Positions 1 to 36,385 of a stretch of 59,136 nucleotides of DNA are shown here, in pieces (the first letter of the stretch is position 1; each line of letters begins with the position of its first letter). The position numbers and the translations under genes were made by a program. The stretch is from Atractiella rhizophila (lineage: Eukaryota), in NCBI GenBank assembly GCA_021432655.1, contig MU271312.1, forward strand, positions 1 through 59,136, written 5' to 3'. The notes beneath the pieces are model-generated. The model saw only the letters and a program-made list of their open reading frames with translations, was not told the DNA's origin and made no database searches.

Positions 1-3000
1 GCGAGAGATACAAGCGGGAAGGTCGAAGGCATCGGGTCGGGAAAGAGAGGGTCGGGGATGGGGAGGGTAAGTAATTTGATGAGTGGAGATACATATTCAG
101 GTTCGTTTCCCTCCTTTACCTTGTGGTTATGCGATTCATGAGGAATAACTTGAAGTGGCACAACGCTTCTGGGACTTTTCGGACGTCTTCACTGCGCCGG
201 TCAAGCTCACAATAGCCCTGATCTTTCTCTATGAGTACCCGCTCTCAATTTCCCTCCGTGCCTACAGTCGCTGAGTCCAACGCTAGAGTTCTTGGCCTTG
301 CAAGCTTCGCAGGTGTCGCAGTCGTTCTCCTGGCTTACCTCCTGAACTACCCACTTGCTCGCTGGAACATCAAGTTGACTAGAGGGATGTGGACGGCACG
401 AGACGAGCGGATGACGCTTGTGAACGAACTTATCACCTCGATTCGATTCCTCAAATACATGGGTTGGTCATCCCATTGGAAGGCGAAGGTCCAATCTGCT
501 CGAGACGACGAGCTCAACTGGAGAATCAAACAGAACGTCCTTGGAAGTGCTATATCTTTCATTTGGCTCTGGTTACCTTCTTGCGTCGTATTAGCCGCCT
601 TTTCCACCTTCACCGTTATCCTCAAACAACCCTTGACCGTCTCTAAGGCGTTTGTGGCTATACAGATATTCAGCCAGCTTCAAGCCCCAATGTCCCAGCT
701 CCCGAACGAAATATTTGCTCTCCTGCAGGCATGGGTATCGATGTCCAGAATTCAAGCATACCTCCAGGAGGAAGAAGTGGAGGATTGGGCTTCCGCTGTC
801 AAAGGGGCAGAAGAGTCCTTGGGCTCCGAGGATGGAACGGTTGGTTTCGAGAACGCAAGCTTTAAGTGGCATATCATGGAAAAGGGGAGGGATAAGTCGG
901 AGGTGGAGGAAAGCTTCACACTTGGACCTCTGGACTTGGATTTCAAAGTTGGTGGATTGAACTTGGTATCCGGACCGATCGGAAGCGGGAAGTCCAGTCT
1001 GCTCAGCGCGCTGTTGGGAGAGATCCCAAGGGTGCAAGGAAGGGTGCTTGTCGACAAGAGGAACCATAATGTTGCATATGCAGGCCAACAACCTTTCCTT
1101 GAGTTTGCCTCCATTCGGGAAAACATTGTCTTCCACTCGAGGTGGGATGAACAGAAATATTGGGCTACAGTCAAGGCATGCGCTTTGCAGCCGGACTTGG
1201 ATATGCTGGAAGATGGAGATATGACTGGTACGCGTTCTCGTTTAAGAGCGCAGGTCGCTAACGAGGACTCTAGAGGTCGGCGAGAAAGGTGTCCAGCTCT
1301 CTGGTGGGCTCAAGTTCAACCTTTACAGAAAGAAACAAAACTGACCGAAGCTTAGGTGGTCAAAGAGCACGCATTAGGTACTTTACCACAAATGCAGTCT
1401 TACAGGTGCTGACGACCCCACAGCCTTGCAAGAGCTATATACTCTCAAGCGTCTGTGAGTTGTCACCCATCCCCCACTGCTTTTGTGATCGTGGTTTCAG
1501 TTGATATTGCTCGATGACCCGTAAGATTTCCAATCACGTCAAACTCATTGTAAGAAACGGTTGTGCGCAGGCTTGCAAGTGTCGACATGCACACAGCCAG
1601 GCACATCTTCGAGCATTGCCTTTCTCCCTCAGCCCCCCTCATTGCCGGTCGCACCGTCATCCTAGTCACTCATCATGTTTCTCTCTGCCTGCCAGCTACC
1701 GAATACTTAGTTGAGATGCGGGATGGAAAGGTGATCCGCAAGGGAGACGTTGAGGAACTCAAAAAGCGAGGATCGCTCATCAAAGTAATAGAAGACGAAG
1801 ATATAAGTGAAGAAGAAAGTGGTACTTCATCCGACAAGGCGACACTCGCTGCGAACGACGCGGACGAAGCTGTCAACAGCAAGCCAACAGTGGCGGCGGA
1901 GAGACGGGAAAGGAAAAAGGTCGAGGACACGGAGACGCAAGCGGAAGGTCGAGTGAATTATAGGACATACCTCCTCTACATGAAGGCAGCCGGTTGGATT
2001 TGGTGGACGTTGACTATTATCCTCCTAGTTCTTATCCGACTAATCAACGTCGGCAACCAATTCTACCTTGCGAAATGGACGGAAGCGTATAATGTTGCTC
2101 TGAGAATTGTAGCTTTCTTCATTACTCCATCTCGACGCGTTTATGTTCTCACTTCGGATACCATCCTCTCGGCCGCCTTACCACCTCCCTCAGAGAATGT
2201 TACTCCGTGGATACTCATATATCTTTCTATCTCGGTTCGATTCCGTTTTTCTTTACACCCCTTCAAGGTTGACATCCGCACATAGATGGCCGGCGCATTT
2301 GCAGCTCTGGCTTATATAGTCATCGGTTATGTCTCGTCCCTTCGAGCATCGCGGGTGCTATTCACCTCTATGCTATCCAGCGTTGTTGGATCCCCGACGC
2401 GTTTCTTTGATATATCTCCCACAGGGAGGCTTCTCAACCGTTTTGTCTCTGACATTCGAGCTTTGGATGATGCACTCAACAACTCCTCACGCACAGCGAT
2501 ATCAGGCACCTTCCAGTTTTTGATCAGCTTCGGCGTGATCGTTTACGTTATCCCCATTTTCACCCCATTTGCTCTCGTTATTGCTTTCATGTATATATAC
2601 ATCGCACCTCCATTCGTCAGGACTGCGAGAGACCTCAGGCGTCTTGAGAGCATATCGTTGTCGCCTGCTTTCAGTGGATTTTCCGAACTTCTTTCAGGCC
2701 TCCCTCATATTCGTGGTTATGGAATGGAGATCAAATATCAAGACAGGTTTTATGACCGCGTGGACCTATTTCAAAGCATGGATCATGCATACTGGTTGGC
2801 CCAGATGTGGCTGAGGTCAGTTATCCCCTTTCTTTACGTAGCAGCTCTGAAAAATGATAGGTATCGGTATGATGTGCTCGGATCGCTTGTCGTCTTCATG
2901 ACAACATTATTTGCTTTATGGAGTGAGTTGGATGCGGGGAGAGCAGCCGTTGTGATTGTCCAGAGTGGAGTATTCGCAGATGCTAGTCGACAGTTGGTTA

Positions 3001-4230
3001 AAGTATTGGCACAAGCGGAACTTGACTTTAATTGTGAGTCGCTATCTTTCGAATCGTTATCCTGAGTGAACAGCCCGATGATAGCAATTGAGAGGATCAA
3101 GGAATATCTAGACTTAGTCCAAGAAGCTCCAGCTCAACGTCCAGAAACACGCCTGCCTGCTCACTGGCCTTCAACTTCTGGCGGGATCGATGTGGAGAAC
3201 CTTTCCGTTCGATATTCCCCTGACCTCCCGATGGTGCTCAAAGGTATCAGCTTCTCTGTCAAACCAGGGGAGAAAGTTGGAGTCGTGGGAAGGTACTTGA
3301 ATTCTGTATTGCATCCCCCCCGACTTACTCATTTTGCTGTAGGACTGGTAGCGGGAAAAGCACACTTGCTATGGCGTTATTGAGGATCGTAGAACCTATG
3401 AGCGGTCGGATTTTGTGAGATTTTTTGCTCATGTCATTCCGACTTCCTCAAGGTTCCTGTGACAGGTTGGATGGAATCGATGTCTCCACAGTCGGTTTGG
3501 ATGACCTTCGGAACGCGATTGTGTGTTGTTGTTGTTGCTTGTCACAATCTGCTGCCAACTGATTGATCGTTTGGCTTAGACCATAATCTCTCAAGATGTA
3601 TCCCTTTTCGCAGGAACTGTTCGCTCCAACCTTGACCCATTTGATGAACATGAAGACAAGGAGATTTGGGATGTTCTCCGCCTTTGCCATCTCGCACCAC
3701 CTCCTTCCTCCAACCCCGCAGCACCAACCACAAAATCGGCGATCATAACCTCTCTTGATCAGCCAGTCTCAGCTGGTGGCGCTTCTTTTTCTGCAGGAGA
3801 ACGCCAGCTTATCGCGTTGTCACGGGCGATGTTGAGAAGAAGCGGTTTTATAATACTTGACGAAGCATCATCGAGCATAGACCTAGACACGGACAACAAG
3901 GTTTCTCTTTCTTCGTCTATCGCTTGTTGTAGCGCGCTAATCGCGTCGCGCAGATCCAAAAAACGATAAGGAACGAGCTGGGAGACACCCTCGTCCTCAC
4001 AATCGCACATCGTCTAATCACAGTAGCTGGTTCGTCTCTACCTTCCCCATGTCGCCTAGGCCTAATGCCTCGATCCAGATTATGACCGTATCCTCGTCCT
4101 GTCGGCAGGGGAGATCCTTGAATTCGACACTCCTCGCAATCTATTCGCGAACAAAAATAGCGTTTTCAGAGAATTGTGCATGCGGTCGGCAGACTGGGAA
4201 GCACTCTCCAAAATACTGAATGGCTCATAA
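1..4230 (+). CDS. ABCC/MRP-type ABC transporter, multi-exon, 5' end outside window
   Basis: TMD1-NBD1-TMD2-NBD2 order across ORFs 231-1355, 1563-2285, 2286-3065, 3066-3383 and later exons. Walker A GPIGSGKSS; second NBD with VGR|TGSGKST, FSAGERQL, LDEASSSID, TIAHRL. Many short GT-AG introns; stop TAA at 4228-4230. Confidence 0.95.
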
Positions 4231-4334
4231 CTTGAACTTCGTGGGCCACAGTGCACAGATAGAGTCTGTAATGGAATAAAAATACAATTTTGCAACATCT
4301 ATGCGTTGGATAAGTTTGAAACAAATGTCCAAGT

Positions 4335-6071
4335 TTACAAATCTCGGTCAACCCTCATTTCCTCCGCCTCCCCTTTGGTGGTCCCGAAGACCCTCTCTTT
4401 TTCGCCTTCTGTCAGGCCATAACCCCTCTCTAATTTTGCCAAACACGGAGCTTGAAACAAGGAGCCTTTCACGAACCCAACAACAGTTGGACCGATGACC
4501 ACAACAAAGAAGAATCCTACGGTAGCCGTCATTATCGTTCCCAAAGCGCTACTTCCAGTCAGCGAGGCTCCGGGGACGGGAGAAGGAAAGAGCTTACTTG
4601 AAAAAAGGGCTTTTGAATGTATCGCCCAATCCGAAAGTGAGGAGAGTCATACTGCCTATGGGAAAGGTGAAGCTCCACCATCCAATGGAGAACTCGATGC
4701 CGCTCCTTCCTCCTTTGCCCTCTGCTCCGCCGACGCACTCTCTACCTTCTCCCTCCGCTCCCCACAAAAACCTGGGAAGCAACGTTGCCGCAGCGAGAGC
4801 AAACCACCACATCCCCAATCCCCAAAATAAGAGGCTTAAAACTGCACCTGCGCCATACATGGCTTTTCCAAGCTCTCGAAGCCCTTCATCACTATTTTCA
4901 GCAAATAGGGAAGCGGCGTCCTTTCCCAGGCGCAGGAGAGAGAAGCCGCCTTGTCCACATGGCCCGAGAGGAAGGAAGACTGTGAGAAGCAACGAAGGTG
5001 CGGGGAGATGATGATGTGCAAGTCGTTGAAAGTAGAGCGTGAGGATGGAATAGGCTAAGAGAAGCCCTATGCCGAGGACGGCGTAAGAGGCGAGGAGGAT
5101 TACAAGGGCATAAGTTGCGTGCCCTTCGGCGTGCAAAGCAGGTATGATGCCTGATCCGGAGGCAGCAATCGTGATCGGTGGGACTGTGATATTACAATGT
5201 TATATGACGCGCCGAACGCTTTTGAGCGAGATCAGAGGGACTGACCGATAGGTAGAAGCCAAAGCGCGGTCATCCCCTCTGGTTTATGCGACTGTCGAGT
5301 ACTCATGAAAAATGGTACGCCAACGACTGTCAGAACAGCTAATGTCCCGGCAATCCACCAGAGTGTTGAGGTGACAATAGTGACATGTGGAAGAGAGTAG
5401 GAGTGGCCAAGCTGATGAATCCCAGTTACTATCGTCCTGTGCTACGGAGTTGAGTGAAACTTGAAATTGGGGAGATGCAAAAGCTTACACTAGACCCATC
5501 TATTTATGCGATGGACTGTCTCTCAGTATGTTTAAGAAGTAGACTAAAGAATAACTTGCTGGTATAGTCTGCCAAATGTCGTTAGGTCCGAATGGGAAAG
5601 AGAGGGGAAACATACACCAAGAAACATGCTATGGACCTCGTTGGAAACTAAAGCTGGTAGCAGCTTGGGAAACATGACGTATCGTGCGATAGTGAAGAAT
5701 GTGAAAAGTGCGGCGAATGCAAGATTGATCACGAAAATGACGGTAGAAATGATCCGTAGAACACCGTGGGTGTCGTATGGTATGTCGACTGTGATTCGAA
5801 CACTTAATACTGCTTGAAAGCATGGAAACAGCAAGGAAGCGACGCACAAATGAGATTTGAAAGTATGCCAGTGCCCATGATTACACTATCAACCCACCAT
5901 CAGTCGCCGATAAGACGAACAAGAAGCTTGTGAAAGCACAGCGGAAATTAAGCTGCTCTGTGTGCTAAAGACGAGAAGACAGAGAAGTTTGAGCTTGTTT
6001 GCACGAGTGTAAAACAAATTACTACTGACTGTGCCCATGCGGAAGCAGCCCTCCTCCATCAAAATCCTCAT
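4335..6071 (-). CDS. TDT/SLAC1-family anion transporter (SSU1 sulfite efflux / Mae1-like), multi-exon; start uncertain
   Basis: Family motifs VIMGTGI, HSMFLG, FLPLGPCGQGGF, FSIGWWSFTFPIG and C-terminal FQAPCL in minus-strand exons. Convergent with the ABC gene. Confidence 0.85.
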
Positions 6072-8505
6072 CTATCCTAACAATTAAGGCTATCTTGGAA
6101 TCATTGAACGATCAGAGTCATTGAGAAACAACTTATAGTAAGACATCACCTGTCATGCAGGTTTGTTTTTGTTGAACTTGGAACGCAGGTGAGAACCAAA
6201 ACAATGTTGAGATCAGTCGGGGACATATTGTCCTTCTCTTACATTTTTTCAGAGCAACTCAATGAAATAAAGAGTTTGACAAACAATAACACAATAAGGA
6301 GTACATCACCGCAGCATTGCTGGTAGCGAAACATAGGAATCAAAGGACCAGCGATTCGGATCGAAGAATGCACTTCTGCCCCGTTTTGCATAATGGCGGA
6401 CCATTCTGATCAAATAGGGCATAAGCATAATCAAATGACAGTTGAAATGACAGGTTGACATTTGCGAAGCTAGAATAGGTCATCCAAACTTCTGCGGGGA
6501 AGCAGACTGGGGCCCCTCAGAGGAGGATGCAAGGAGAGGACATGAGATAGCCACTCGTGAGACAGCTTGGTGATGAAGAGAATCACCGCGCACAGTCTTC
6601 CAGATTCATGAAATGCCCTTAACTATACAAATATGTAAAATTGGACGTGATGTCCAAATAGAAACCCGAGATATTCCACTCAATCCAAGCAAAGAGCTTA
6701 CCTCCACCAGCCAGGCGTAAACCTCAGTATTCGATTCCTAATCCCCCATGCAGGCTGCGAGATATAGTAAGGGTTGGCAGAATCCATCTTTTGTGGTTGC
6801 TCTACGTTGAAATCGATGTGGCAATGGCAATGGCGATAATTTGAGAAACTTCAGAAGAGTGATCGTTTTGTAAACGCGTCGAGGCAGCATGACTCTTGCT
6901 GACGCACACAGTTTTGAGAGACATCGCCGGAAGTGGCTTATAGTAGACGGGGTACAGGCCCTGTACAGGCTATCTTCTTTCCCAGCTTCAGCTTCACTAT
7001 TCTGGGACTGCTGAGTGAGGGAGAGTGTGAGTGTCCTTAGTCAACTACGTGCGTGTGATGCTCCGATCCTGTTGATTGTTAAGGTGTTGGCATAAATGTG
7101 TAGGCCAACCTGAATGAAATATGAAAGATGGTGTCGATGCCCGTCGACATCGATATAATAGTGATCCCTGCTTCTGCGCTTCTCATTTGCATCTGCCGTG
7201 GGCGCCGTGCGTTCACCCAGCTCATTCAAACACACATACACAGGCATGGCTGCCTCCGCGCCTCACTTCGCCAGAAGTCTGGGAGAGGTACTCAGCGCAG
7301 TGCACGTTAAGCACTCTGCGTAGAACACATTCTAAGGGCTACAAGGCAAGGCGTAACCAAAAGACGCTGGAAGGGTATTGGAAAGAAGAGTGAGGAATAC
7401 GAAGTGGCACAATTAGGTGAGCGTATGGCGGTGGCGATGGAGATGGTGACGAATGGGACAATTTGGGGAGGATGAAGACGAGTTCTGGAGGAGGTGTATG
7501 CTGAGACGTGTAAGAGGATCTTGAGCCGTGCCTCCATCTCTGACTATTCGATACGAATATTCTAAGAGACTGTTCGATGGAGGGAAGGGAATGAGGAAGA
7601 AGCCCAAATCTACATATGACGGCGACATTCCCAGCATTCCGCTTTCCATTCTTTCGGCGAACAGCTATGAGGAGAAATGGTGTTCATGGAACTTGACTAA
7701 ATCATGAAGAATGGGGCAGATCCTCCAACTTGCTCCAACTGACTCCAAAGCTAAAGCATAAAGTCATGATATCCATGGATGCATAATGCCGTATCAGGAC
7801 CAGTGCGGATACTACACTACTAGTACTAGTAGCAGCCGTCACTTTTGGCAGATTGTAATATCCTGTCATCCCTGCCATCATTCTAGCAAATGTAAGCCTG
7901 AGCCATGCATTTTCGGAATGTGGGATAGAATATTGAGATTAAATGAATCAGGGTTTCTGGAACCCAGCTCTCTCTGCATCAATCGACAAACACTCTCTGC
8001 ACCTCTCATGCTGTCAGGGAGAGCAAGTTGTTCCTGGATTTCGCGTATCGAGTGTCAAGTGCAAGTGCCAGCAGTTGGTTGTTACGACTACACGATCAGT
8101 AGAAGAAAGTCTCGCCTGTGAGTCTTTATTGACCCTGGCCTTGTCGATGCAGAAATCGTTTGGTTTTGTTCTCTTCGGTTCATCATGCCATCCCTCTTTC
8201 CCATTGCACTCGTTCCTCCGTCTTGCAATTTGATAGACTGTTCAAGTTGCCCTAAGCTTATCTCCTCTCCTTATCCTCGCATCCTCAATTTGGATTTCTT
8301 TCAGGCAATCGTATGTACGGGTCTTTGCTGCTCTGCCGTATTCCTTCTTTCGTCTTCTTCTTCACAGTCAGTTTCAAGTATCCTTTCGCTGCTCTCACTC
8401 CTCGTAGCTCTAGTCCAGATCTGACATGAATTTCCTCAGTTTCGTCTCACGTTTAACAAGGAGTTCTGGATCAATAGTCATCGATTTCATCTCGTGCTCT
8501 GAGCG

Positions 8506-11500
8506 ATGGACGTCTCAGTCATCGGAAAGACGCCTAAGCCTTCTTCATCAAGCCCCAGCGACCATGAAGATCCTGGGAATATGTATGACGACGACAATGC
8601 ATTCAGCACCGATTCACGACAAGTTCCTCCTCCTCATGAAAGCGCTGTAGTTCGAAATTTTTCGGTATTGCAGCTCTACTCTCAACCCTGCCGTTTCTTG
8701 AGCGCCAAACCAACAATTTTTGGTCCACAATTTTGCTTCCTATCGTATACCGCACCACCCGTTGCCTCTACAGCTGCTACTTCTACACCTTTCTCATCCC
8801 CTAGCCCCTCCCCAGTTCAAATTGTCAAGATTTTCAAAGTCCCCGAGAATGTCAAGAAGACAAACGACCAAGGCATCAGAATCCTCGCTGTTGACAACGG
8901 CGGGATCTGTACCTTTTCCACGCTTTACACGCTCGAAGTCGTCATGCTCCAAGTTGGAGAACTCCTCGGAGCTTCCGAAGGAGAGGAAGTACGGCCGTGC
9001 GATGTTTTCGATCTCATCTGCGGCACGTCCACTGGCGGATGGATCGCCCTCACGCTGGGACGATTAGGAATGACTGTTCGACAATCCATCAACGCGTATG
9101 AGCAAATCGTCCAGAATGTCTTTTCCGAAGAAGCTCCACTGTCGACAGAAGGCTACGCCTACTCTGCAGAGAAGCTCGAAGATGTCTTCCGCGAGATCAT
9201 TTCAGGACATGTTCCGTCGTCCGCATCGACCTCTCAACTTCCTATGAAGGACGACGCGATCAAAGATAGATGCAGAACTTTCGTCGTGTCAAGATACGAA
9301 TCAAATGCAGTTGTTTCAACAGAGATGCGCACCTACGACGGCCTCGATGCAGTTCACCGTGCTGCTCGATGTACAGTGTTGGAAGCAGCAAGAGCAACTT
9401 CCTCTGCCCCTAAATTCTTTCCTCCTATCATCATCGACAAAGTGAAATATGTTGCCATTGGGAACAACAACCCAGCGGCAATAGCGATTGACGAGTCCAA
9501 GCGTATTTGGGGAGAAGGAAGCCAAGTCGCCTGTCTCGTCTCTCTGGGGTCAGGGATCGCGCCTGCTGTCAAGTTGGGTTCTGCTAAAGGCGAGATTGAA
9601 GTCGCTGTGAAGACCATTGTCGAAGATTGTTCCCAGGTAGCTGATCAGCTGAAAATGAGGATGCAGGCTAGCAGTCTAGGTCATCGCTACCACCGCTTTT
9701 CAGTACACACGATGGGAGGTATCAAGTGGGAGGAGTGGGAGCGAACGGAGGACGTCGTGGGCCGTACGAAGGCTTATATGGAAGTAATGGGTTACGAAGC
9801 GCGTAATGCTGCTGAATGTCTCGTACAGGGTGTGTTCTCTTCCCTCTTGTGAAGAAACCATGTTTGATGTTCTTTTAGTATGCAGTGAACGGATTACAAT
9901 TCGTCGACGGTTGTCGTTACCACCTCCAGGCTCTTGCTTTGGGCGCGAACCCGAGATCGAACTTGTCAAAAAAGCTATACTTAATGGCTGCCACGTTGCG
10001 ATTGTGGGCGGAGCTGGAAACGGCAAATCCACCGTTGCACTCTACACCGTGCACTGCGATGAGATCGAGCAGTCCTTCACGGATCTGACACGGGGCACTG
10101 GAGAAGATCTCCGCTTCTGGGTTTGCTGCGACAACTTCCACACCTTTTCCAGGCTTTCTGATCACATCTGTAACGACATCTTCGCACTGGCAAAGTCTAG
10201 CAAAACATCGTTAGAGATCGTGGCAGATTTTTTCGGAAGTCGAAGATGCCTTCTGGTTTTGGACAATTTTGAAACTCCCCTTCATGGTGACAAGGACAAC
10301 AAACAAAACTTCTTTCGAACTCTTCTTTCGAAAAACTCAGCTGGGTCAGTGCTTGTGGTAGCTCATCGCGGACATCAAGTGGAATCGTTAGACGTCAAGG
10401 CTGATAGACCTGTCAAGTTTCTCAAGGTCTTAGTTGGAGGTTTGCCGAAAGAAGGTTCCTTTGCACTCTTCGCAAACGCATATCACAGAGAAGACGAGCT
10501 CGTGCGGCCCGTAATCGAACGCGCGATTGAAAAACTAGACTTCCACGCTCTATCAATCAAACTATTCGCTCTACGTGCCCAGGAGGATTTAACCATGACA
10601 CTTGAAGAATTAACGGACGAGTGGGAGGAGAAAAAGACAGAAGTTTTATGGGATGAAGACAGCAAAGAGGTGATCACTCTCAAAACGTCTATATGGTTCT
10701 CTCTCAAATCTCCAGCTCTCAAACAGCAGGGGGAACGAGGTATTTTTGCCCTGGCTCTCCTGTCATGGGCCCCTGATGGTCTTTCCCTTGAAGATTTATC
10801 AGCGCTCATTTCCAACGCTTATGGAGCTCAGGGTATCTACAAGGTTATTGCTGTGATTTCAAAGATCGGGCTTGCCGATGAGCTCAACAGCTCTTTTCGC
10901 CGTCTACGGATGCTCGCTCCCATTCGCGAATACCTCAACAACCTTGTCTCTCTTTGCAAACCACCATTTTCGATGACTGTCACTTTGTCACTCCAGCCTC
11001 TCGCAAACCATCTCATGTGGAAAGCTGAGAAGCTTATTAAAGAGTACGAACATGCCAAGGTTGATAATGCACTGTTTCTCTTCCGCGAACAATATGCAAA
11101 TCTCGAGCATGTCCTGCTAGCAGGTATGGTAAACCTATCAGACCCTATATCATTTGTCCACCGCTTGGATGACATGTCAGAGTTCCTACGCCTGAAACAC
11201 TACCTCTCGACTTCGCTCTTCCAACATGCGGTGTGTGCAGTGGAGACAGCGCTGGGAGTACAGGCTTTTTCTAAGGAGACGCACTGTAACTTGTTAATAC
11301 TGAAGCGTTTGCTAATGGAGTCACTTGGTTATTCTTTTTATAACCAGGGTATCAACAAGGATGCAGTGATAACGTTTGAAAAGGCAAAGTTGCTGTATTG
11401 TGAAGTGCGAGATCAGCATGGCCAGGCTCGCTGCATTTACTGCTTAGGGTTAGTCAATTTTCAATCTGGCCGTAACGAGGATGCATTGAAGGCATTGGAG

Positions 11501-13066
11501 GAGGCGAAGTTGATCTTTCAGGGGGTGGGAGATCGACAGGCACAAGCCAACTGTGTCTTAAATATCGGAAAGATCAATTTCCATTGTGGCCAGAATGAGG
11601 ATGCCCTGAAGGCATTCGAGGAGGCGAAGGTGGTCTATGGGGATGTGGGACATCGGCGAGGTGAAGCCAACTGTATCACAAATGTCGGGAGGATCCATCT
11701 TCGATGCGGCCGGAATGAGGACGCGCTGACGGCGTTTGAGGAGGCGAAGGTGGTCTATAGGGAAATTAGATATAGAATGGGTCAGGCCAACTGCATCTTC
11801 AACATTGGAAAGATCGATTTCATTTGTGGCAGGAACGAGGACGCACTGAAGGCGTTCGAAGAGGCAAAGGTGGTCTATCGGGAAGTGGCTGATAGACGGA
11901 GTCAAGCTAACTGTGTCTCAAATATTGGAAAGATTGATTTCCATTGTGGCCGGAACAATGATGCACAGAAGGCATTTGAGGAGGCAAGGGTGCTCTATAT
12001 GCAAGTAGGAGATCGACAGGGTCAGGCCAATTGTGTCTCAGATATTGGAGACATCAATTTCCGTTGTCACCGGAACAATGACGCGCAGAAGGCATTCGAG
12101 GAGGCAAAGGTGCTCTATATGCAAGTGGGAGATCGACAGGGCCAGGCCAACTGTATCTTCAGGGTTGGGAAGATATATTTCCGATGCAGGCAGAATGGAG
12201 ACGCGCTGACGGCATTTGAGGAGGCAAAGTTGATCTATCAGGAAGTGGGAGATCGGCAGGGTCAAGCCAACTGTATCTTCAATGTTGGACAGATAGACTC
12301 TCAATGTGACAAGAACAATGACGCACTGAAGGCGTTCGAGCAGGCAAAGGTTATCTATCAGGAAGTGGGAGATAGACAAGGTCGAGCCAATTGTGTGTCA
12401 AATATAGGAGAACTTGATTTACGTTGTGGCCAGAACGAGGATGCGCTGAAGGCATATGAGGATGCGAAGGTGATCTATCTGGAAGTGGGGGATCAAGTAG
12501 GCCAAGCCCACTGTATATCTAAAGTCGGAGAGCTCCATTTTCGATGTGGCCGGAATGAGGATGCGCTGAAGGCATTTGAGGATGCGAAGGTGATCTATCA
12601 GGAAGTGGGGGATCGACTCTGTCAAGCTCACTGTATCTTCGACATCGGAAGGATTGATGTTCAATGTGGACGGAATGAGGATGCACTGAAGCTGTTTGAG
12701 GAGGCCAAGTTGGCCTATCAGGAAGTAGGGGATCAATTGGGTCAAGCTCACTGTATCTTCAACATTGGAGAGATCAAAGTTCGATGTGGACAGAATGAGG
12801 ATGCACTGAAGGCATTTGAAGAGGCGAAGGTGGTCTATCAGGAAGTGGGGGATCGACAAAGAAGGGCCAAATGCATATTTAGTGTTGGGAAGATACATTT
12901 CCTGTGCACACGGAATCAAGATGCACTGAGGGCATTGGAGGAGGCGAAGGTCGCCTATCAGGATCTTGGGGATCGACAAGGCGTGGCAGATTGCTGCCGA
13001 TTAATAGGTGGTGTCTATTTCATCATCTCTTACAAACGTGGACAATGTGTTAGTGCAGGTTGGTAA
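8506..13066 (+). CDS. NLR-type STAND protein: patatin-like domain + NB-ARC-like NTPase + 14 TPR repeats (PLP-1-like architecture), ~1500 aa
   Basis: ORF 8506 has a patatin fold (FDLICGTSTGG, EAARATSSAPKFF, VSLGSG). ORF 9806 has Walker A GGAGNGKST, Walker B LLVLDNFET and a TPR array. Intron 9830-9878 (GTGTGT...TTTTAG, phase 1) joins them in frame (G+TA=Val). Confidence 0.88.
11354..13033 (+). repeat. Coding tandem array of 14 x 120-bp (40-aa) TPR-like units
   Basis: Units recur at exact 120-nt spacing with consensus NEDALKAFEEAKVxYQEVGDRQGQANCIFNIGKIxFxCGR; high nucleotide similarity between units. Confidence 0.95.
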
Positions 13067-13221
13067 ATGAGAGCAGTAATTAACCTTGCTGACTTGGGTC
13101 ATAGACCAATCAGCTCCTTCTAATACCTCACTCCCACAACCTCCCAGTTCCTCTTGAACTGCTCTTCTACATCTTTAAGCTTTGGCTCAGCTTTAGTTAC
13201 AGCATGTCTGCTGTGGCTGTG

Positions 13222-14041
13222 TGTTAGGGCTGACATTATGTACAGTCACCGATGGGCGATGGGTTTGTAGTGGAGATAAACCTAAGTGCATGATATGACA
13301 TGAGAAGACTAACCCGTAGTGGAGATAAACCTAAGAGGATACTCTAACGTCACCTCCACTCTCTGATCTACATACAAGCAGAATAATACTGCCACAAAGT
13401 GTCGGGCTAAGTGGATGTCAGGCTTGCCCCTGCGCATTACCGAAATGCACCATTTGAAGTCACGTGACCTACTTTACCACGTCTAGGATCACGTGCCTAC
13501 CCATCGCCGCTTTGCTCACGTTCGCGCTGACCGCCGCCTTCCCCTATCTCACACGAATCGCCGCTCAGCAAACCTTACACACCTCGCCAGTCTGCATCGT
13601 CTCGATTATTGCCTTATTATCCTTTCTCACTTGTACTGCTTAGTATGTCTTATTTCCAAGTATTCCCTTTATTGCTTTCCTAATCTAGCTATCATTACAT
13701 GTTTCAAGAAACGTATGTTACAGTTTATGGCAGTGCCTTTACATATGTATATATACATCGAGATGTAGTGGTAGTGACCTCAGAGTATTCTCTTAGGTTT
13801 ACCTCCACTATAGGTCAGTCTTCTCATGCCATACTATCACTTAGGTTTACCTCCACTGCAGACGCATCGCCTATCGGCGACCACACATAGTGTCAGCCCT
13901 AACAGTGGAGATGTGAGCACAAATGGGCGAACGGGAGACGCAGAGTGGCAACGGGGAGCAGAGTAGCAACGAATGCAAACGGACAATAGGAGACGCAATC
14001 TGGCAAACGGGCACCAATTTACATAAGATACAAACCTAACA
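13222..14041 (+). mobile_element. Solo LTR 1 (~326 bp net), interrupted by solo LTR 2
   Basis: TGTTAGGG...CCTAACA termini; 5-bp TSD CTGTG at 13217-13221 and 14042-14046. Confidence 0.9.
13416..13904 (-). mobile_element. Solo LTR 2 (489 bp), related family, nested in LTR 1 in opposite orientation
   Basis: Minus-strand termini TGTTAGGG...CCTGACA; 5-bp TSD GTGGA at 13411-13415 and 13905-13909; shares about the first 150 bp with LTR 1. Confidence 0.9.
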
Positions 14042-14257
14042 CTGTGCTTTCAGAGGTCTACCACAGATGGTGGTACCTCTCTCACAGCTTGCCATACGAA
14101 TGGGTCCAGTTCAAGAGGCTAACAGATACGTAGCAGTGTTCTTCAACTATACCCTGATTGAGAAACCCAGTCCGATGCTATCTCATCAAATCCTCGTTTT
14201 CTTAGGCGTCTTGCTGTCCAGTGCTCGTGTGAGCGCTCTGTTTCGTAGGTAAGCAGC

Positions 14258-14608
14258 TGTCAGGTTTGCATCTTACGCAAATCGGCGCTCGTTCGCCCAT
14301 TCGGCCATTTGTGCCTGCATCACAACTTAGTCCATTTGTGTCTATTCTCCTCTTGTTAACTCCATGTAGTCCCACTGTTACTTCCCCCTTTTAGTTCTCT
14401 TGTATGTTTCATCTGCTCTCCTCTACGCTCTGTGGCAGTGTTATTCCGCTTGTATATATAGATCGAAGGGTAATGGAGGTGACCTTAGAGTATTCTCTTA
14501 GGTTTATCTCCACTACAGGTTAGTCTTCATGTCATATCATGCTCTTAGGTTTATCTCCACTACAGACGCATCACCTGTCGGCGACCGCACATAGTGTCAG
14601 CCCTAACA
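14258..14608 (-). mobile_element. Solo LTR 3 (351 bp) inserted in the copia integrase
   Basis: Termini TGTTAGGG...CCTGACA; TSD GCAGC at 14253-14257 and 14609-14613. Its removal restores the integrase motif EAVKHAA|YLRNR. Confidence 0.92.
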
Positions 14609-16589
14609 GCAGCATGCTTCACTGCCTCTGCCCAGAGCCGTCCTGATAGCTTTCTAGCAAAAAGCATCGCCCTTGCCAGTTCCACCAGTGTCCTGTTCAT
14701 ACGCTCCGCCATACCCAACTGCTGATGCGAGTACGGCGTGCTCACTTCGAGCTCGATTCCTTTTTCGACCTCCAACCAATCGTGTACCTTCTGCCCAATA
14801 AACTCGCCGCCTTGATCAACACGAATCTTCTTGGGAACATGTCCGTATTTTCTTTCAATGAGATTGACATGCGACTGAATTTTCGACAGCACCTGGTCCT
14901 TTGTCTTCATGAACGAGACTGTGGTCCGACGCATGCAGTCATCGGTGAATGAGATATAGTATCGCGAATTTCCAATCGAAGGGACTTGTGAGGGTCCCAC
15001 ATGTTAGAGTAGGTGAGTTCCCCAGGCTGCTCGGCTAGTGTTGACCCTTTGTGTGGATAGGGGTTATGCGCATGTTTTGGTTGGATGCAGGCGCAAACTG
15101 AAGGTGAGCTGGTTGTATCCACATCCATACCATCGACTAATCCCTTCTTGTGCAGCTCTTCCAGCGTTGATATGCCGACGTGACCGAATGCGCGGTGCCA
15201 CTCGTCCCAAGTCTTTGCTGATTTCTCTGCCACCGCCAAAGTCGTCGCCTTGCTTGCATCCAAGTCCAACTGGTAAAGCCTCCCCCTCTTCGTGCCCTGA
15301 GCAAGCAACTGACGGTTCTTGCTCCAGAGTTTAATCTTGCCATGCCCAAATGTTGCTTCCCCGCCTGTGTCGTCGAGTCGTCCAACGGAAAGGAGCAAAT
15401 TCGGTGCGTCAGGTGCGTAGAACATATCCTTGAGCTTCAGGGTCTTTGACTGACTGTTGACAAGGACGTGGAGCGTGTTTGGTCCTCAGAGCATCGCTGG
15501 AATCAGCTCCTTCGAGAGTCTGTGTATCGAGAAGGTTGAGAGAGGTACGCATGCTTCCTTCGTGAAGCCGTCCATACTGTTGCTGATATGCGAGGTAGTG
15601 CCTGAATCGCCGAGCCATACCTTGCATGAGAGTCTTGCGTTGAAATGCTCAGTTCCGTGGAAGACGGAGTCACCGGCTTCATCTTTCGCTTGGTGAGCCT
15701 TCTCCCCTCTTCCCCTGCCTTTCTGATTCTTGCTAGGCCTTTGGGCTTCCTTGCCACTTCCTGCGGACTAACAGTCCGCCTTGAAGTGGCCCTTCTTGCC
15801 ACAGTTGAAACACTCGACACTGGATTTGTCAGGCTTGCTCCCGCCGCTGTGCTGCCCGGTGAGCCTCTTCCCCTTCCCGTACATCGTGGTTTCTAACTTG
15901 CCAGATTTCTCTTTCTTCCTCCTCTCCTCTTTGGTTAGAAGTGACGAAAGCTCATGCAAAGTGATGGCGAGTTTGTTCGAGTTCACACCGAAGTAGGCTG
16001 ATGTAAAGTTGTCCCAGGAATCAGGGAGCAACGCACTGAACGTGTCGCCCATTACATTAAAGTAAGTTCTTCCTGTATCTGCCTGAAGTTTGAGATGTGC
16101 TCAGCCATCAAGAAGCCTCTTCGGCCTTTGTCTTGTACAGCCGTCTTCGTGTCGCCAGGATCCCTTTGATACCTCTTGCCTCTTTCACTGCGCACAAGTG
16201 TGTCCACATCTGCACTGCCATCTTCGCCCCTGTCATGTGTACAAGCTTGCCGTCCGAAATTGTCAGCTCGAAACGGGTCTGCACCTTCCTATCTTTGACA
16301 TCCCATGCCTTGAGGTCATTGAGGTTCATGACCGTTTCTGCCCCATCAGCATCTCTGACTTTGATAGGAACCGGTCTATCTTTCTTCGATCCCATTACGT
16401 AGTCGAGCAGGTCGAGCTCTCGTAAGACTGCGGTGATGCGCCGTTTGTACGCAACCCAGTTCTTTGCCTTGAGTGGCTCGATCTTGAATGCGCCGAGGTG
16501 GTCTTCTGACATGGTGGCTATTAGCGGTAGATTGGTGAGTTGTTTTCTTCGTGTGTATGAATGGTATTGATCTTGCTGGCCAGGCGTTT

Positions 16590-16601
16590 GGGCTCATAAC
16601 A
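16590..16601 (-). promoter_or_regulatory. Primer binding site, half-tRNA(iMet) type
   Basis: TGTTATGAGCCC immediately follows the LTR end (...ACAACA) and matches the GGTTATGAGCCC PBS of Ty5/copia-type elements at 11 of 12 positions. Confidence 0.75.
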
Positions 16602-16861
16602 TGTTGTAAGACTGTGAATACTGATGCGAGGTTTAAGTTGAGAGGAAACAAGAATATTATTATTATTATTATTACTCTCCCAGACTTCAGCATGGTTTAT
16701 ATATCTGAGAAAAGTGTGGCAAACAAATTCTTGAAAGCACACCAATGCATAAGAAATCAGTAAGCAAGGAGAAGTGAGAAGAAAATAGAATCCTCTCAAA
16801 TATGTGGCATCATGTCATTCTTAGTAAGCCATGAATGGTGGTGGCGGGCTGAACTCCAACA
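16602..16861 (-). repeat. Putative 5' LTR of the copia element (~260 bp)
   Basis: TGTTGG...ACAACA termini, abuts the PBS, internal TATATAAA on the minus strand. No second copy in the window to confirm it. Confidence 0.55.
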
Positions 16862-16870
16862 ATAGGAAAT

Positions 16871-17262
16871 CATATGTTTGACATATCTACATTGCTTATT
16901 TTTCCTTCACTTTTTTTGATATTCGCTCAATCTTATTAGGCATTATGCGTAGTAATATCTAGCCTCCAGGCCCACCACTCACCGCCCTCACATCTAAAAT
17001 ATGGTGTATAATGGCAAAGCAATGGGGAATTGCATTTTTTGATACATATGAGGTCAATATTTTTTGCTTCGCTTTTTTTTACTATTAGCTCATTCCTTTA
17101 TGAATTATATGTTGCTGTAGCTTGATCTCAGGCCTTACGTTCGACATACTCACACCTAAGATACAATAGATAATGGCTGGCAAAGTTATGGGCATATGTT
17201 TGACACACATACATTGTGTATTTTTTGCTCCACATTTTTTTAATGTTCACTCATCGTTATTA
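16871..17262. repeat. AT-rich degenerate region with imperfect ~70-bp direct repeats
   Basis: CATATGTTTGACA...TACATTG...TTATT at 16871 and 17193; probably decayed TE sequence. Confidence 0.4.
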
Positions 17263-18040
17263 CATGTTATACAGGGCACCAACAGCATCACATACCTTAC
17301 GTTCAAGCGACTTAACAGGAAAACACATTGTGTATTGATGTCGGAGGGTGCAACTACCTTTCAAGTTTCCACATACCTATATATTTTATTTCATTTTTTT
17401 TGCTTCAGAGACAGACACATTCCTTTCATAGACACTGGATCAGTCTGGATTATATTCATCATGAATCATTAATCATTACTGCATTTTTCCATTCAAGAAT
17501 ATTCGAGGTCGACCGCTTTGTGTTTGCAGCCCGATGCAGCGCAAATCTCCCCGAAATTGAGCGCAGAGCCCTTTTGAGCGCGCTGTTCCGGCTATGGTAA
17601 TATTGCGGCAATAGTCTGCACATTGCTGACAATTACTTAATTTGTGCAAGCTGAGGATGGCAAACTTTGCTTTGTACTATAGAGCGATGTGTGGGTTGTT
17701 GCACTTTGTAGTCGAAATAGAGGATGAAAGAAATGAATAACTAACTATTGTTTTGTTCGACTACAAAGCGCAAGACCCCGCTGAGAAAGGGCAGAAGCGC
17801 TCACCCTAACCAACGAGGATTTGGATAGTACGCTCTATAGACTTGGAGGAAGCAAGGGGACGGGTGGGTGGGACTTAAAAAGAGAACGCGTATTAAGACT
17901 GCTTGCGAGTGAGGAGCAGCAGACCTGAGCGTGAGGCGATGGTCGACTTTGCTTGCAATCAAAGTAAGCGCCTCACGTGCACAAACGCAACTTTCGCTTC
18001 TTCGTGCCTCATTTTCGAAACTTCACTATCTCAGTGCAGA

Positions 18041-20854: not shown

Positions 20855-23800
20855 CTAGGCCGTATAAACGAGATTGGTCGGGTAAATGACGCCATCACTC
20901 CTAACCAATAGAATCGGAAGTCTAATGCTTCCAGGGACACTACCACTGAATATGGGAGGTTCAGCAAGCATCACCTCTTCACTTCGAACATGACATTTGG
21001 TGGCGGGTCGATCTCCAAACCAAATCCTATAAGTAGCGTTGAGGTGCTCGCCGAAGAAGGTCATCGTATTCGTTCCATCTTTGGAGAGGTGATACTTCGT
21101 CAAATAGGGGATGTTCGGTCCAACCGGAGCAGCAGGTACAGGAGTGGAGAGGAGATGCGAAAGGTCATGTTGTGGTCGGTTCTGAGGTGCCGATGCGAGA
21201 ACCGGAGGAATGTAGAAGGTATGTCGAACCATATCTATCGAACAAATGTCAAATCTTTGTCCTTCATGAAATGACAGCAAACAACTTACCGATACCGACC
21301 ATAGTCCAAATGCTTGGCTCGCCAGCGTCCACATCCCCGCTCATCAGTCCGTTTCCTTCCTCCACCACGCTCATGGATGCACCTCTCTTCCTAACAGCTG
21401 ACAGGTTCGACTTGCTGACAATACCAGTGCCGGGAACAAGTAGGGAAGCGCTTCTCCTTCCTCTCGAGCTCTTCACCACACGCCCTCCATCGTTCGATAC
21501 GTCCTCCAGTCCTGCCGAACCGTGGGATCTCTGAGAAACACTGGTCTTGACTGCTGCTGCATTCGCCTTCGTAGTAACATCCACCGGTACTGGAGAATGA
21601 ACCCCAACATTATCTCCCAAACAAGCTAGGAATGTGCCCGTCGGTATACCAGTGTTGGGGTCCGTCATCTCCAGAGCGACTTTCTGCATCTGTGCAACCT
21701 GATCTTCTCCTGTAGCTCCATCACCCTGCGACGCAGAAGCGTTCACCAACGGGCCAATGGATACCGAGCTGCCTTTTTCGACGCGGCGAACGACCATTGG
21801 CGGGGAGACAAGGCCGGTGGCGAGACATTGTAAGACGACGGTCTGGTTATAGAGGATTGGTTGGCCGCCTTGAACTACAGGCAAGGCGCTGGAAGGTGGA
21901 CGAGGATAACCGGCTATGGGGGCCTCGGTTGGCTTAGATTGGTTGTTTCGGGACTGGTCGATGGCGTAGATGACAAAGGGATCCCATGCAGAGGTACGGG
22001 AGATGAAGGAAGCTGACGAATTATTGCCTATTGGTGCGCTTCCTGTCATGTAGGCGTAATCTGTGGCTGGGAAACAGGCAGAAGTAGTGGAGACGCAGAG
22101 ATATTTCGTGCTCACTATTCATCATGCATTACTACCTGCTTTCAAATAAAGGGGAAGGGGACGAACAAGATCGAAGTCTGTTGTAAAGGGCGATCGTGGT
22201 TCCATGATGAATGCCCACTTTATATCGGGACATTAGCAACACATCAACTTCAACTTCAAAGAGTGGAGGGACGTACGTTCACAACCTTTCGAACCTCCTC
22301 TCTTCTTGCTCGGCTTCGAAATAACTTTCATCGGTCTGCTCGGGAACACGCCCACTACTCTCTGCTCTTCGGGCCCGTCTCCTGGCATGACCACCTTGAC
22401 GATAGCTTCCACCTTCCTATTCCTCTCCTCTCCGTCTCCAATGTGCAAATTCTTCCCGACGACGCGTCCAGCGATCGGAATGCTTTCAGGTCCGCTCACC
22501 AGCCTCGTTCCGTTTGCAAAGTTGTTATCCGCTCCCTCCAACCTCCCATCAGAGGTCATCCATTCCGTCCAACTCTCTGGACTCTCCGCTTCCCCCGCGA
22601 TGGAGATTGTGATCTTAGGAGCATGGAGGGCATAATCCATCCCCATCGCTCCGTTAGGATTCGGCGCAGCAGATGGCAGGGCAGAGAACCAGGATGCTCC
22701 AAGGATAAATGCGGATGGGGGAGGACACAGGAAGCGTTTCTCGTTCCCATACGACTTTTGTCCGACCTTGCTCGACAGAACAAGAACAGTTCGTTCGCCA
22801 AGAGAGAGGCGGTTGCGAGTTGAAAGGTATTTCTGTACATGCGGTCTGTTTATAACCGTTTATAGGTCAGCTCATGTTCCACTAGAGATATGAGGAGGAA
22901 AGGGGAGACCCCTACCCTGCAAAGGAGACATTCTCCTCCACAAACCCCATGAGCTTGAACCCCTCCTGCACACCTTCCCATCCCTTCCCAACATTTCCAC
23001 TAGCACTAGCAGGAGCCAATCCCTTCCATCCACCACCAACCACGGTTTTCGTCTTATTCGGACTCATACTCAAAGCCGCAAGGTCGGAATAACTGCTCCT
23101 CTGACTGACGCTCAACAACAGACTAGGCGAGCTCAAAGGCGTATCCAACGTGCTCGTGCTCGCAGTCGCCGAGCTGTCGCTTCTATATCGATTGCCCACC
23201 ATCCCTGCTGGAATCGGGATCGAAGGAGGTACACCTCCCAAACGGGAGGTGGCTGAAGAGGGGGAGGGATAGAGGAACTGGACGTCCGCGTATTGGGTTG
23301 GTTGGTTCGGTGTTGGTTGACGAGTAGAGGTCGAGTGGGCGGTAGCCGTGGGTGAGGGGCATGGGAAGGAAGCGGTGGAAATGATGGGTTGGCTCGGATG
23401 TCGTGAGAGGGTTGGTAGAGAAGGATGTCGATGAATCGTAGGTAGCGAGGGCTGGGAATGCATCCTTGGGAGTCCGGGAGGGGGTACGGAGGGAGGAGAA
23501 TACTGCTGTTTCGCCGACGATGCAGCAGTGGGTTGGAAATCCTGCGATCCGACGGTTGCAATGGTTGACATGGAGTTAGAATGGTGGAGAGCGAGACCGG
23601 AAAACTCTGGCTGGGACGGTTGGTGGAAAGGTGGACTGGGAGTCGTGGCCGCTTGCCGTTCTTGTTGGTAATGAAAAGTTTGAGCCAGTCGTTGTGGATT
23701 GGGGCGGGCGAAACTCGAAGTGAAAGGAGCCTGACCGAGTGATCCGGATTCGCTCTGCTTCGCAATGATTCCTCCCATCGCCATGTCGGACATTGACGAG

Positions 23801-35145: not shown

Positions 35146-36385
35146 TTATAGCCCTTTATCATTTTCTGCGGCTTCTGCCTCCTTCCACTTGTCAATGCTG
35201 CCCTCGAAGATCCACCATCCTGGCAATGGAGATACGGTGTCCACGGTGGCTTTCGTGCCCACCAAACCGGAAACCATGGTAGTTTCGATTTCCAATCCGT
35301 TATCCATCAGTTTGACGGGAACGCTTGCATACGACTTTGTAACTGCCGTGCTATCGAGGTAACCGTACCGGACGCCGTCGAGGACGAGGCAAGCGGAATC
35401 CTTTTTGTCAGGGGGACTGTATTGCTTCCTCCCCTTTTTATCCCAGAAGCTGAATGCGGTGATCCATCCTGACCCAGCCATGAGAAGAGAACTGCATGAA
35501 GAAAAGAGACGCATGCCTGAATAACGGGAAGAACCGCTGCCATATCTCTCGTGGGAGTAGATTCTACTCCAGAATTTCCTGTTGTCCTGACCGTCTGGGT
35601 CGTCGAAAGCTGCAACAAAACGATTCAAGATTGGTCGCAGGTTTCTGGCAAACAGGGCTGGCTCTTCCCCGAACTGTTCAAACTTATCCAACTTCTCCAC
35701 CAGCTTGATCCAATCCTGCTTCTCTCCCTCCAAAGTAACCAGGGGAAGCCCGCAAAGCAAAACGCCGGTGTAAGAGAAGTAAGATTGCAGTGTGGCCATC
35801 ATGAGCACAGCGGAAACGACTGTATCAATTTCCGTTGTCGTAGTGAACGAGGGCAGGATCCAGTCAGTTAGGGTTTTGTCGACCACGTTTTTGGAAATTT
35901 CTTCAGAGAAAAGTCGAGCCATGAAGCCAAAGTCGACGGTATATCGATTTCCTTGCAAAAAGACGATCAACTCTTTTTTGCCTTCATGTGCAACGAAATG
36001 TTGACGGAGTTCTTCAGAGTGGGCATTGACGTATACATTGAATTGTGATAGGATGGCGATCCTGAGTCGAATCAGAGATTACATCTTTACAGGAAAGGAA
36101 GGCATACCAAACGTCGTCTGGTCTAATGATGACCTTATGGTGATGATTGTACGCCATTACCAGCGTGTCAACTAACCCATTCGTTTGAGGAATGATGCTT
36201 GACTGCCTGTATTCCTTCGGAGAGATGGAGCTTTGAAAAATCTCTGGATTTGGTTTAACCCGATAGAAATCAGATAATTCTGTCTTCATGAGATGGGCCA
36301 ATGGGTTGGAAACTGCTGTTGTATCATGACAATCGACGTTTTTTATACCAACTGGCTTCTTTGAAGGGCGGAAAGTAACTGGCAT
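35146..36385 (-). CDS. DUF4419-domain protein, multi-exon
   Basis: MPVTF start; NGLVDTLVMAYNHHHKVIIRPDDVW|IAILSQF, FVAHEGKKELIV, WILPSFTTTT, LMMATLQSYFSY, CGLPLVTLEGEKQDW, GWITAF. Confidence 0.88.

Follow-up and report, generated by a model that had tools for sequence, protein, structure and literature searches.

The locus

The window analysed here is the whole stretch of 59,136 nucleotides (nt) from contig MU271312.1 of the fungus Atractiella rhizophila. Two open reading frames (ORFs) follow one another on its + strand, one with a patatin domain, the other with an NTPase and tetratricopeptide repeats (TPRs). Judged from the sequence, positions 8506-13066 are a single two-exon gene with a predicted product of 1503 amino acids (aa). 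We consider it probable that the gene codes for a fungal NOD-like receptor (NLR) built of a disordered extension, a patatin-fold head, an NB-ARC-type STAND NTPase as its nucleotide-binding oligomerisation domain (NOD), and 13-15 TPR units of 40 aa. The features of the gene are the following.

8500-8502, + strand: in-frame TGA two codons 5' of the first ATG, which shuts the frame upstream of the start
8506-9829, + strand: exon 1, with a 114-aa low-complexity N-terminal extension and the patatin domain; its last base is base 1 of a split Val codon
8893-8913, + strand: oxyanion-hole motif DNGGICT, degenerate (family consensus DGGGxRG; GGGxR/KG is not found)
8917-9489, + strand: Pfam Patatin match, aa 138-328 (E 1.4e-14, 55.1 bits versus a cut-off of 27.7)
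9022-9036, + strand: nucleophile elbow GTSTG (GxSxG) with Ser175 kept, aligning to GTSVG of CapV
9448-9462, + strand: YVAIG, with Ala317 in place of the catalytic Asp (HMMER alignment to YVDGG of CapV; column counts)
9830-9878, + strand: intron of 49 nt, GTGTGT...TTGAT...TTTTAG (sequence and paralogue junction peptides)
9879-13066, + strand: exon 2, with the NB-ARC-type NTPase, a helical linker and the TPR array; stop codon at 13064-13066
9920-10882, + strand: NB-ARC-like NOD, aa 456-776 (hhalign, profile, Foldseek)
10007-10033, + strand: Walker A, GGAGNGKST, with G43, G46, G48 and K49 invariant in 18 sequences
10250-10273, + strand: Walker B region, LLVLDNFE, with D, N and E invariant in the family
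11411-12970, + strand: thirteen exact 40-aa TPR units, aa 953-1472, with a degenerate unit upstream and a partial fourteenth running to the stop
13059-13104, + strand: candidate second intron of 46 nt, GTTGGT...CTGAC...CATAG, enclosing the stop codon (sequence only)

A 49-nt intron joins the two reading frames

ORF1 extends from stop to stop over 8503-9852 (frame 1, first ATG at 8506) and ORF2 over 9788-13066 (frame 2). The initial annotation had fused them into one gene through a 49-nt GT-AG intron, and this claim holds: the frame, the coding sequence, the junction peptides of paralogues and a break in tblastn alignments all agree. The GT at 9830-9831 and the AG at 9877-9878 can be read directly from the sequence. 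Removing 9830-9878 takes frame 1 into frame 2, eliminates the TGA at 9850-9852 that ends ORF1 and leaves a split GTA (Val) codon; an ATG at 9860, in the frame of ORF2, is enclosed as well. Joined by script, the exons give a coding sequence of 4512 nt, that is, 1503 codons and a stop. At the 5' end, the paralogue models P0026, P0033 and P0037 begin at the equivalent Met (query residue 1 is protein residue 1).

An in-frame GT..AG pair alone is weak proof of an intron, since a script listed 11 such pairs, each spanning 40 nt or more, with which the frame runs on stop-free. Only one of these, 9830-9878, produces the junction peptide LVQ-V-CSER. The peptide stands at the same place in other A. rhizophila protein models: it is exact in P0172 and P0035, differs by one residue in P0026 (A for V), P0008 (H for C) and P0025 (G for S), and is more divergent in P0006 (LVQ-C-CAYR). 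A tblastn comparison of P0006, P0007 and P0008 with the window found the gene as a single copy, with the alignment breaking at 9828 and restarting at 9869-9890. These alignments run collinearly over 8425-9828 and 9881-12586 without another break and therefore call for no additional intron. The earlier statement that this is the only intron required thus stands for the ORF; it may fail over the stop codon, where splicing of the 46-nt candidate would swap the last two residues (Gly-Trp) for an 18-aa tail.

Transcript-like evidence was available from a sequencing run of unrecorded kind (X1), whose contigs (0.44 of the words) were placed on 4000-18000; 8 of 153 pieces and 6 of 36 loose ends of this placement were listed. 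The run appears cDNA-like in that its record 1 exactly joins three exons of a neighbouring gene. Its contigs contain 14 joints, four of which were dropped from the intron comparison: three are non-canonical (5786/5848, 8867/8992, 14251/14608) and one joins opposite strands. The donor GTGTGT, the branch-like TTGAT and the acceptor TTTTAG of the 49-nt intron are similar to those of introns skipped by X1 contigs outside the gene, and a length of 49 nt recurs in four of the nine canonical GT..AG gaps skipped there. Within the gene, contigs cover 10094-11211, 11527-11837 and 11837-12163 with zero differences. A variant contig, with differences at 9785 and 9790, ends about 40-45 letters beyond them, near 9830. 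Cover over 12873-13339 was not seen among the pieces listed. Nor did any listed piece or loose end bridge 9829|9879, which is uninformative either way; because no bridging contig was seen, the splicing call rests on paralogue gene models and consensus signals rather than on reads. One X1 contig skips 56 nt at 12271-12326, within the TPR array, with GT..AG on the - strand (depth 3.6; shorter side 135 letters). Its source may be a spliced antisense transcript, or the contig may derive from a paralogue.

If the intron were retained, the locus would hold two independent genes, one for a patatin protein of 448 aa that stops at the TGA at 9850-9852 and one for an NTPase-TPR protein starting from the ATG at 9860. 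Both this stop and this in-frame ATG do lie inside 9830-9878, the paralogue model P0025 (432 aa) is patatin only, and the want of a bridging contig among the listed X1 pieces would agree with such an arrangement. However, five paralogue models cross the junction with at most one substitution and P0006 crosses it with its more divergent peptide. The 49 nt show no conservation as coding sequence, the homology ending at 9828 and picking up again at 9869-9890, and the splice signals and the length are typical of this genome. Moreover, a second cistron 8 nt past a stop normally goes untranslated in eukaryotes, which counts against two genes. We regard two separate genes as highly improbable and retain the spliced gene. 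Length-restricted protein searches returned neither the fused 1503-aa protein nor a protein identical to either half, and the finding corrects the gene model from two ORFs to one fused protein.

On the 5' side of the gene, 7906-8026 and 8425-8505 translate to peptides resembling N-terminal parts of models P0008 and P0172. From this similarity, the duplicated unit takes in upstream DNA; in the window the frame is shut by the TGA at 8500-8502.

The patatin-fold head

Residues 1-114 are of low complexity, yet they are conserved with paralogues starting at the same Met. The folded patatin domain behind them comprises aa 115-441 in an AlphaFold model made from 49 sequences (predicted local distance difference test, pLDDT, 89.6). 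Its nearest solved folds are the CBASS proteins CapV and CapE and potato patatin (Foldseek E 2.5e-15 to 1e-12, template modelling score, TM, 0.65-0.77). By sequence comparison the patatin fold is present, and two of its three catalytic signatures, the Asp and the oxyanion motif, are absent. The top-scoring Protein Data Bank (PDB) sequence for the head is a CapV chain that itself reads YVAGG, while other CapV entries read YVDGG; we read this chain as an engineered Asp-to-Ala variant, on which its PDB title is silent.

The catalytic columns were counted in an alignment of 156 sequences, the window domain and 155 relatives (155 of 171 proteins matched, mostly the best 150 of 4213 representatives). 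At the position of the catalytic Asp, 120 sequences have D, 11 have G, 10 have A, 2 have L and 1 has R, and 12 are gapped. Ser occupies the nucleophile column in 116 of the 156, and its replacement by Gly (GTGTG) is frequent among the patatin relatives, long NB-ARC-TPR proteins included. Both catalytic columns are filled in 140 sequences, with Ser and Asp kept in 100 and one or both lost in 40. The window domain and its closest paralogues carry Ser and Ala at these columns. Loss of catalytic residues seems to be recurrent in this branch of patatin relatives. Since the dyad Asp is lost (Ala317) and the oxyanion motif is degenerate, a non-canonical head is likelier than a standard lipase; it would more likely bind membranes or lipids, or serve as an adaptor, and lack canonical phospholipase A activity.

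A divergent NB-ARC-type NTPase

HMMER recovered on the spliced protein two of the three domains named in the initial annotation, Patatin and TPR; the third, NB-ARC, was missed at the Pfam threshold and was recovered by hhalign, profile and fold. The NOD falls below the threshold of every Pfam model, and 8 of the 18 members of its family match Pfam NB-ARC at E 0.001 or better. In the alignment of these 18 sequences the columns GxxGxGK, LDNxE and the Arg of VVAHRG are invariant; in our reading, this Arg sits at the NB-ARC sensor 1 position. A single-sequence search of the PDB with the NOD returned P-loop noise only (MsbA, Lon; E >0.2), and BLASTP of ORF2 against a Ceratobasidium patatin-NB-ARC-TPR protein gave nothing significant (E 0.1). 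The family profile searched against the PDB found the NB-ARC of ZAR1 (E 6.7e-12).

The model of residues 443-948 (pLDDT 84) has the layout of a nucleotide-binding domain followed by helical and winged-helix parts. Its best Foldseek matches are NRC2, ZAR1, CED-4, the NB-ARC of NRC1 (TMt 0.71) and Apaf-1. NB-ARC or STAND proteins make up the first 29 matches listed, and NACHT proteins are absent from the matches listed. Compared by hhalign with the NB-ARC NODs of 17 other patatin NLRs, the NOD family aligned over 290 columns (probability 99.1, E 5e-19), versus 45 columns (probability 50.8) for seven NODs of NACHT/NPHP3_N type. Because hhalign, the family profile and Foldseek all favour NB-ARC over NACHT, we conclude from profiles and predicted structure that the NOD is a divergent NB-ARC-type STAND domain, not NACHT.

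The TPR array

The array matches Pfam TPR_12 in 10 stretches (E 2.2e-53), and Tandem Repeats Finder gives a period of 120 with 12.7 copies and 75% matches. Amino acid identity from unit to unit is 42.5-80% (mean 60%, 78 pairs), nucleotide identity is 60-84%, and dS between units is about 1. By these sequence measures the units are old repeats. The 12 most variable columns of the unit are 3, 4, 10, 11, 14, 16-18, 20, 35, 37 and 38; as we read the unit, seven of the 12 fall in its first helix. The dN/dS between units, which compares units of one gene and not alleles, is 0.62 at these 12 columns and 0.14 elsewhere. Positive selection on the TPR units was considered and is unsupported, the ratio being 0.62 even at columns picked for high entropy.

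An Atractiella-specific paralogue family

Close relatives of the protein are all from A. rhizophila; the 23 checked by name are spread over about 21 different contigs. The genus Atractiella is part of the Pucciniomycotina, and the basidiomycete origin proposed in the initial annotation is borne out. The best patatin match is 77% identical and the best NOD match 61%, both A. rhizophila proteins; a near-identical counterpart of this copy was not found in the protein sets searched. These comparisons place the gene in a large paralogue family, specific to Atractiella, with about 21 loci.

Searching with the NOD, phmmer found only A. rhizophila paralogues and TPR-STAND proteins from bacteria, metagenomes, Mycena and Exidia; none of 42 other long patatin proteins sampled matched. 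When 40 of these 42 were scanned with Pfam, NB-ARC was present in 17, NPHP3_N or NACHT in 7, TPR (TPR_12/TPR_10) in 22 and ANK in 4. Patatin relatives and NOD relatives thus carry different partner domains. The pattern, which is not a phylogenetic test, is consistent with domain shuffling typical of fungal NLRs. Assembly of the gene by shuffling, as proposed earlier, fits these differing partners and is not demonstrated by them.

The relatives raise an alternative, that of an intact-looking but decaying or non-enzymatic copy in a mostly fragmentary family, with a dead patatin head and a product no longer signalling. None of the 23 named A. rhizophila relatives reaches 1503 aa and most are fragments, the Asp loss and the degenerate oxyanion motif run throughout the clade, and retroelement remnants lie 1.5 kb downstream. 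Against decay, the 1503 codons are open, and Walker A, Walker B, the Arg at the sensor 1 position and Ser175 are intact. The dN/dS of 0.14 at the less variable columns points to purifying selection between repeat units, and X1 contigs cover the gene. In addition, the same Ala or Leu substitution is common to diverged paralogues, which argues for a retained state over random decay. On balance a decaying copy seems unlikely, and a receptor gene with a retained, non-canonical head is preferred. Many members of the family may be incomplete gene models and not pseudogenes.

Models P0054 (166 aa, front of patatin) and P0006 (635 aa, mid-patatin into NOD) are on the same 166,347-bp A. rhizophila contig and have consecutive locus numbers. 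They look like one locus split by annotation.

The rest of the window

Other features of the window are listed below.

222-3966, + strand: ABC transporter, flanking gene
4078-5885, - strand: SLAC1/TDT-type transporter, flanking gene, with gaps at 4549-4597, 5184-5245 and 5886-6701
6185-7752: transcribed, unannotatable stretch between this transporter and the NLR gene (X1 records 2 and 3, with a 195-nt GT..AG gap at 7049-7243)
14563-16593, - strand: copia-type retroelement remnant, 1.5 kb downstream, with Retrotran_gag_2, zf-CCHC, gag_pre-integrase and rve in separate broken frames
20858-22859, - strand: transcription factor of CSL type, whose successive exons encode LAG1 DNA-binding, beta-trefoil and TIG domains
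30090-32348, - strand: open frame of 753 aa with a weak copia gag match (E 9e-5), otherwise unannotated
35149-36078, - strand: DUF4419 ORF; its identity to one A. rhizophila protein is 94%, and to three more paralogues in that species 54-60%
39752-44096, - strand: adjoining ORFs with SNF2-related and C-5 cytosine DNA methylase matches

The neighbouring genes had been described as rich in introns, and X1 contigs agree: they skip GT..AG or CT..AC gaps at 4030-4078 and at the three places listed for the SLAC1/TDT-type gene. No ORF of at least 35 aa in 6185-7752 has a Pfam match. High X1 depth over the copia-type remnant suggests many copies. The ORFs of 39752-44096 may be one SNF2-methyltransferase fusion gene.

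A candidate immune receptor

The order of patatin, STAND NTPase and TPR that the initial annotation had likened to PLP-1, an allorecognition NLR, is confirmed by Pfam, the structural models, Foldseek and hhalign. Several hallmarks of fungal NLRs are found together: Walker A, Walker B, an Arg at the NB-ARC sensor 1 position, C-terminal repeats of a superstructure-forming kind and an intact frame of 4.5 kb.

Several observations weigh against a signalling receptor of this type. The head has no catalytic Asp, and Cys stands in place of the oxyanion Arg, while cell death by PLP-1 is said in reviews to need patatin activity and the P-loop (PMC12881547; bioRxiv 10.1101/2022.04.03.486892); with the dyad incomplete, the effector step of the analogy with PLP-1 is weak. 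Pfam NB-ARC was not reached on the protein at E 0.001 or better, and the best single-model Pfam match is NACHT (25.7 bits, under the 26.7 cut-off), with AAA_22 and nSTAND1 lower still. Repeat conservation is moderate and stays under the 85% mark of rapidly reshuffling NLR repeats (mean 60%, maximum 80% in aa), a mark that distinguishes a rapidly diversifying NLR subset and not the whole NLR family. The dN/dS between units is below one even at columns selected as variable. Finally, the paralogue models that support the junction are themselves predictions, most of them truncated (79-731 aa), and the junction is unbridged in the X1 pieces listed.

If the protein works as other STAND receptors do, the TPR array would bind a ligand, with the variation between units, as read, concentrated in the first helix. 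Binding would free the NTPase for nucleotide exchange and oligomerisation, and oligomerisation would gather the patatin heads at a membrane and so lead to a cell-death or defence response. For the functional analogy with PLP-1 and other STAND receptors as a whole, we see roughly even chances.

A more specific proposal is that the Atractiella clade, with about 20 loci, consists of pseudo-enzyme patatin NLRs (Ser kept, Asp lost, oxyanion motif degenerate) that act without phospholipase A and whose NB-ARC escapes standard models in the supposedly NLR-free Pucciniomycotina. We put this forward tentatively and consider it less likely than not. A pseudo-enzyme head would signal or kill by binding lipid, by inserting into a membrane on oligomerisation, or as a decoy or adaptor. 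With one or both of Ser and Asp missing from 40 of 140 relatives, non-catalytic patatin heads may form a widespread type of NLR effector that has been overlooked.

The architecture is already known; what is new here is the lineage, Pucciniomycotina, a NOD invisible to Pfam in an expanded family, and the missing Asp. The census of Dyrka 2014 gives zero NLRs of any kind in Pucciniomycotina and offers domain divergence as a possible reason (PMC4986451). A full-text literature search for NLRs in this group returned nothing beyond that paper. Against this count, the present analysis documents an NLR of full length together with its family of about 21 loci, and a NOD under every Pfam threshold agrees with the suggestion that divergence hides the NLRs of Pucciniomycotina. 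The missing Asp makes the need for an active lipase in NLR-borne patatin domains directly testable.

Comparison with known systems

The gene for PLP-1 is reportedly linked genetically to the sec-9 SNARE gene. As in PLP-1, a patatin-like domain at the N-terminus of the protein is followed by an NTPase of NB-ARC type, whose P-loop is intact, and then by a TPR array at the C-terminus. The protein differs in the missing catalytic Asp, in a NOD too divergent for the Pfam NB-ARC model and in TPR units of 40 aa. The gene also lacks an adjoining SNARE gene and sits in a Pucciniomycotina family of about 21 loci; PLP-1 is taken here from its description, which gives patatin, NB-ARC and TPR (PMC12881547; bioRxiv 10.1101/2022.04.03.486892).

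The initial annotation had suggested that such a receptor guards SEC-9. This suggestion is unsupported, as nothing ties the gene to SEC-9. SNARE families had no match at E 1e-4 or better in 98 ORFs of at least 110 aa across the window (9 ORFs inside the gene left out), nor at E 0.01 or better in 68 flank ORFs of at least 35 aa from 5892-8446 and 13004-14520, although short exons could escape such a scan. A true PLP-1 orthologue guarding the SEC-9 SNARE in allorecognition would explain the three-domain order, which matches the description of PLP-1. Besides the SNARE scans, four results argue against orthology: the best ascomycete patatin-NB-ARC-TPR match is 34% identical and covers 77% of the patatin-bearing exon 1 query; phmmer with the NOD matches none of the 42 other long patatin proteins; the TPR units have 40 aa, versus the TPR_10 type (a 42-position Pfam model) dominant in long patatin proteins; and A. 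rhizophila has about 21 loci, not one or two. We give orthology very little credence. The gene can be called PLP-1-type for the architecture it shares, a term that does not make it a demonstrated PLP-1 orthologue.

In fungal NLRs, patatin is almost invariably paired with NB-ARC, with about 1.7 such genes per species, according to Dyrka 2014 (PMC4986451). The protein is similar to the patatin-NB-ARC-TPR NLRs of that class: among the 40 long patatin relatives scanned, 17 have NB-ARC and 22 have TPR_12 or TPR_10, and their patatin domains are 30-38% identical to the one described here. Their NODs, however, are unmatched by phmmer with this NOD, and the relation is seen at the profile level only.

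CapV, CapE and the potato patatin Pat17 share the fold of the head, and their GxSxG elbow aligns with it. Unlike the head, they are stand-alone proteins, either cyclic-nucleotide-activated enzymes or storage proteins, and their Ser-Asp dyad is intact where this gene has Ala. The nearest relatives of the NOD-TPR part outside Atractiella are TPR-STAND proteins (Pfam nSTAND1, AAA_16, AAA_22) of bacteria, metagenomes, Mycena and Exidia, at 24-28% identity. These carry other heads (DUF4062, TIR_2, SIR2_2, metallophosphatase, oxidoreductase) and no patatin, but they have in common with this NOD the GxxGxGKS, LVLDNxET and LAPIRE-type motifs.

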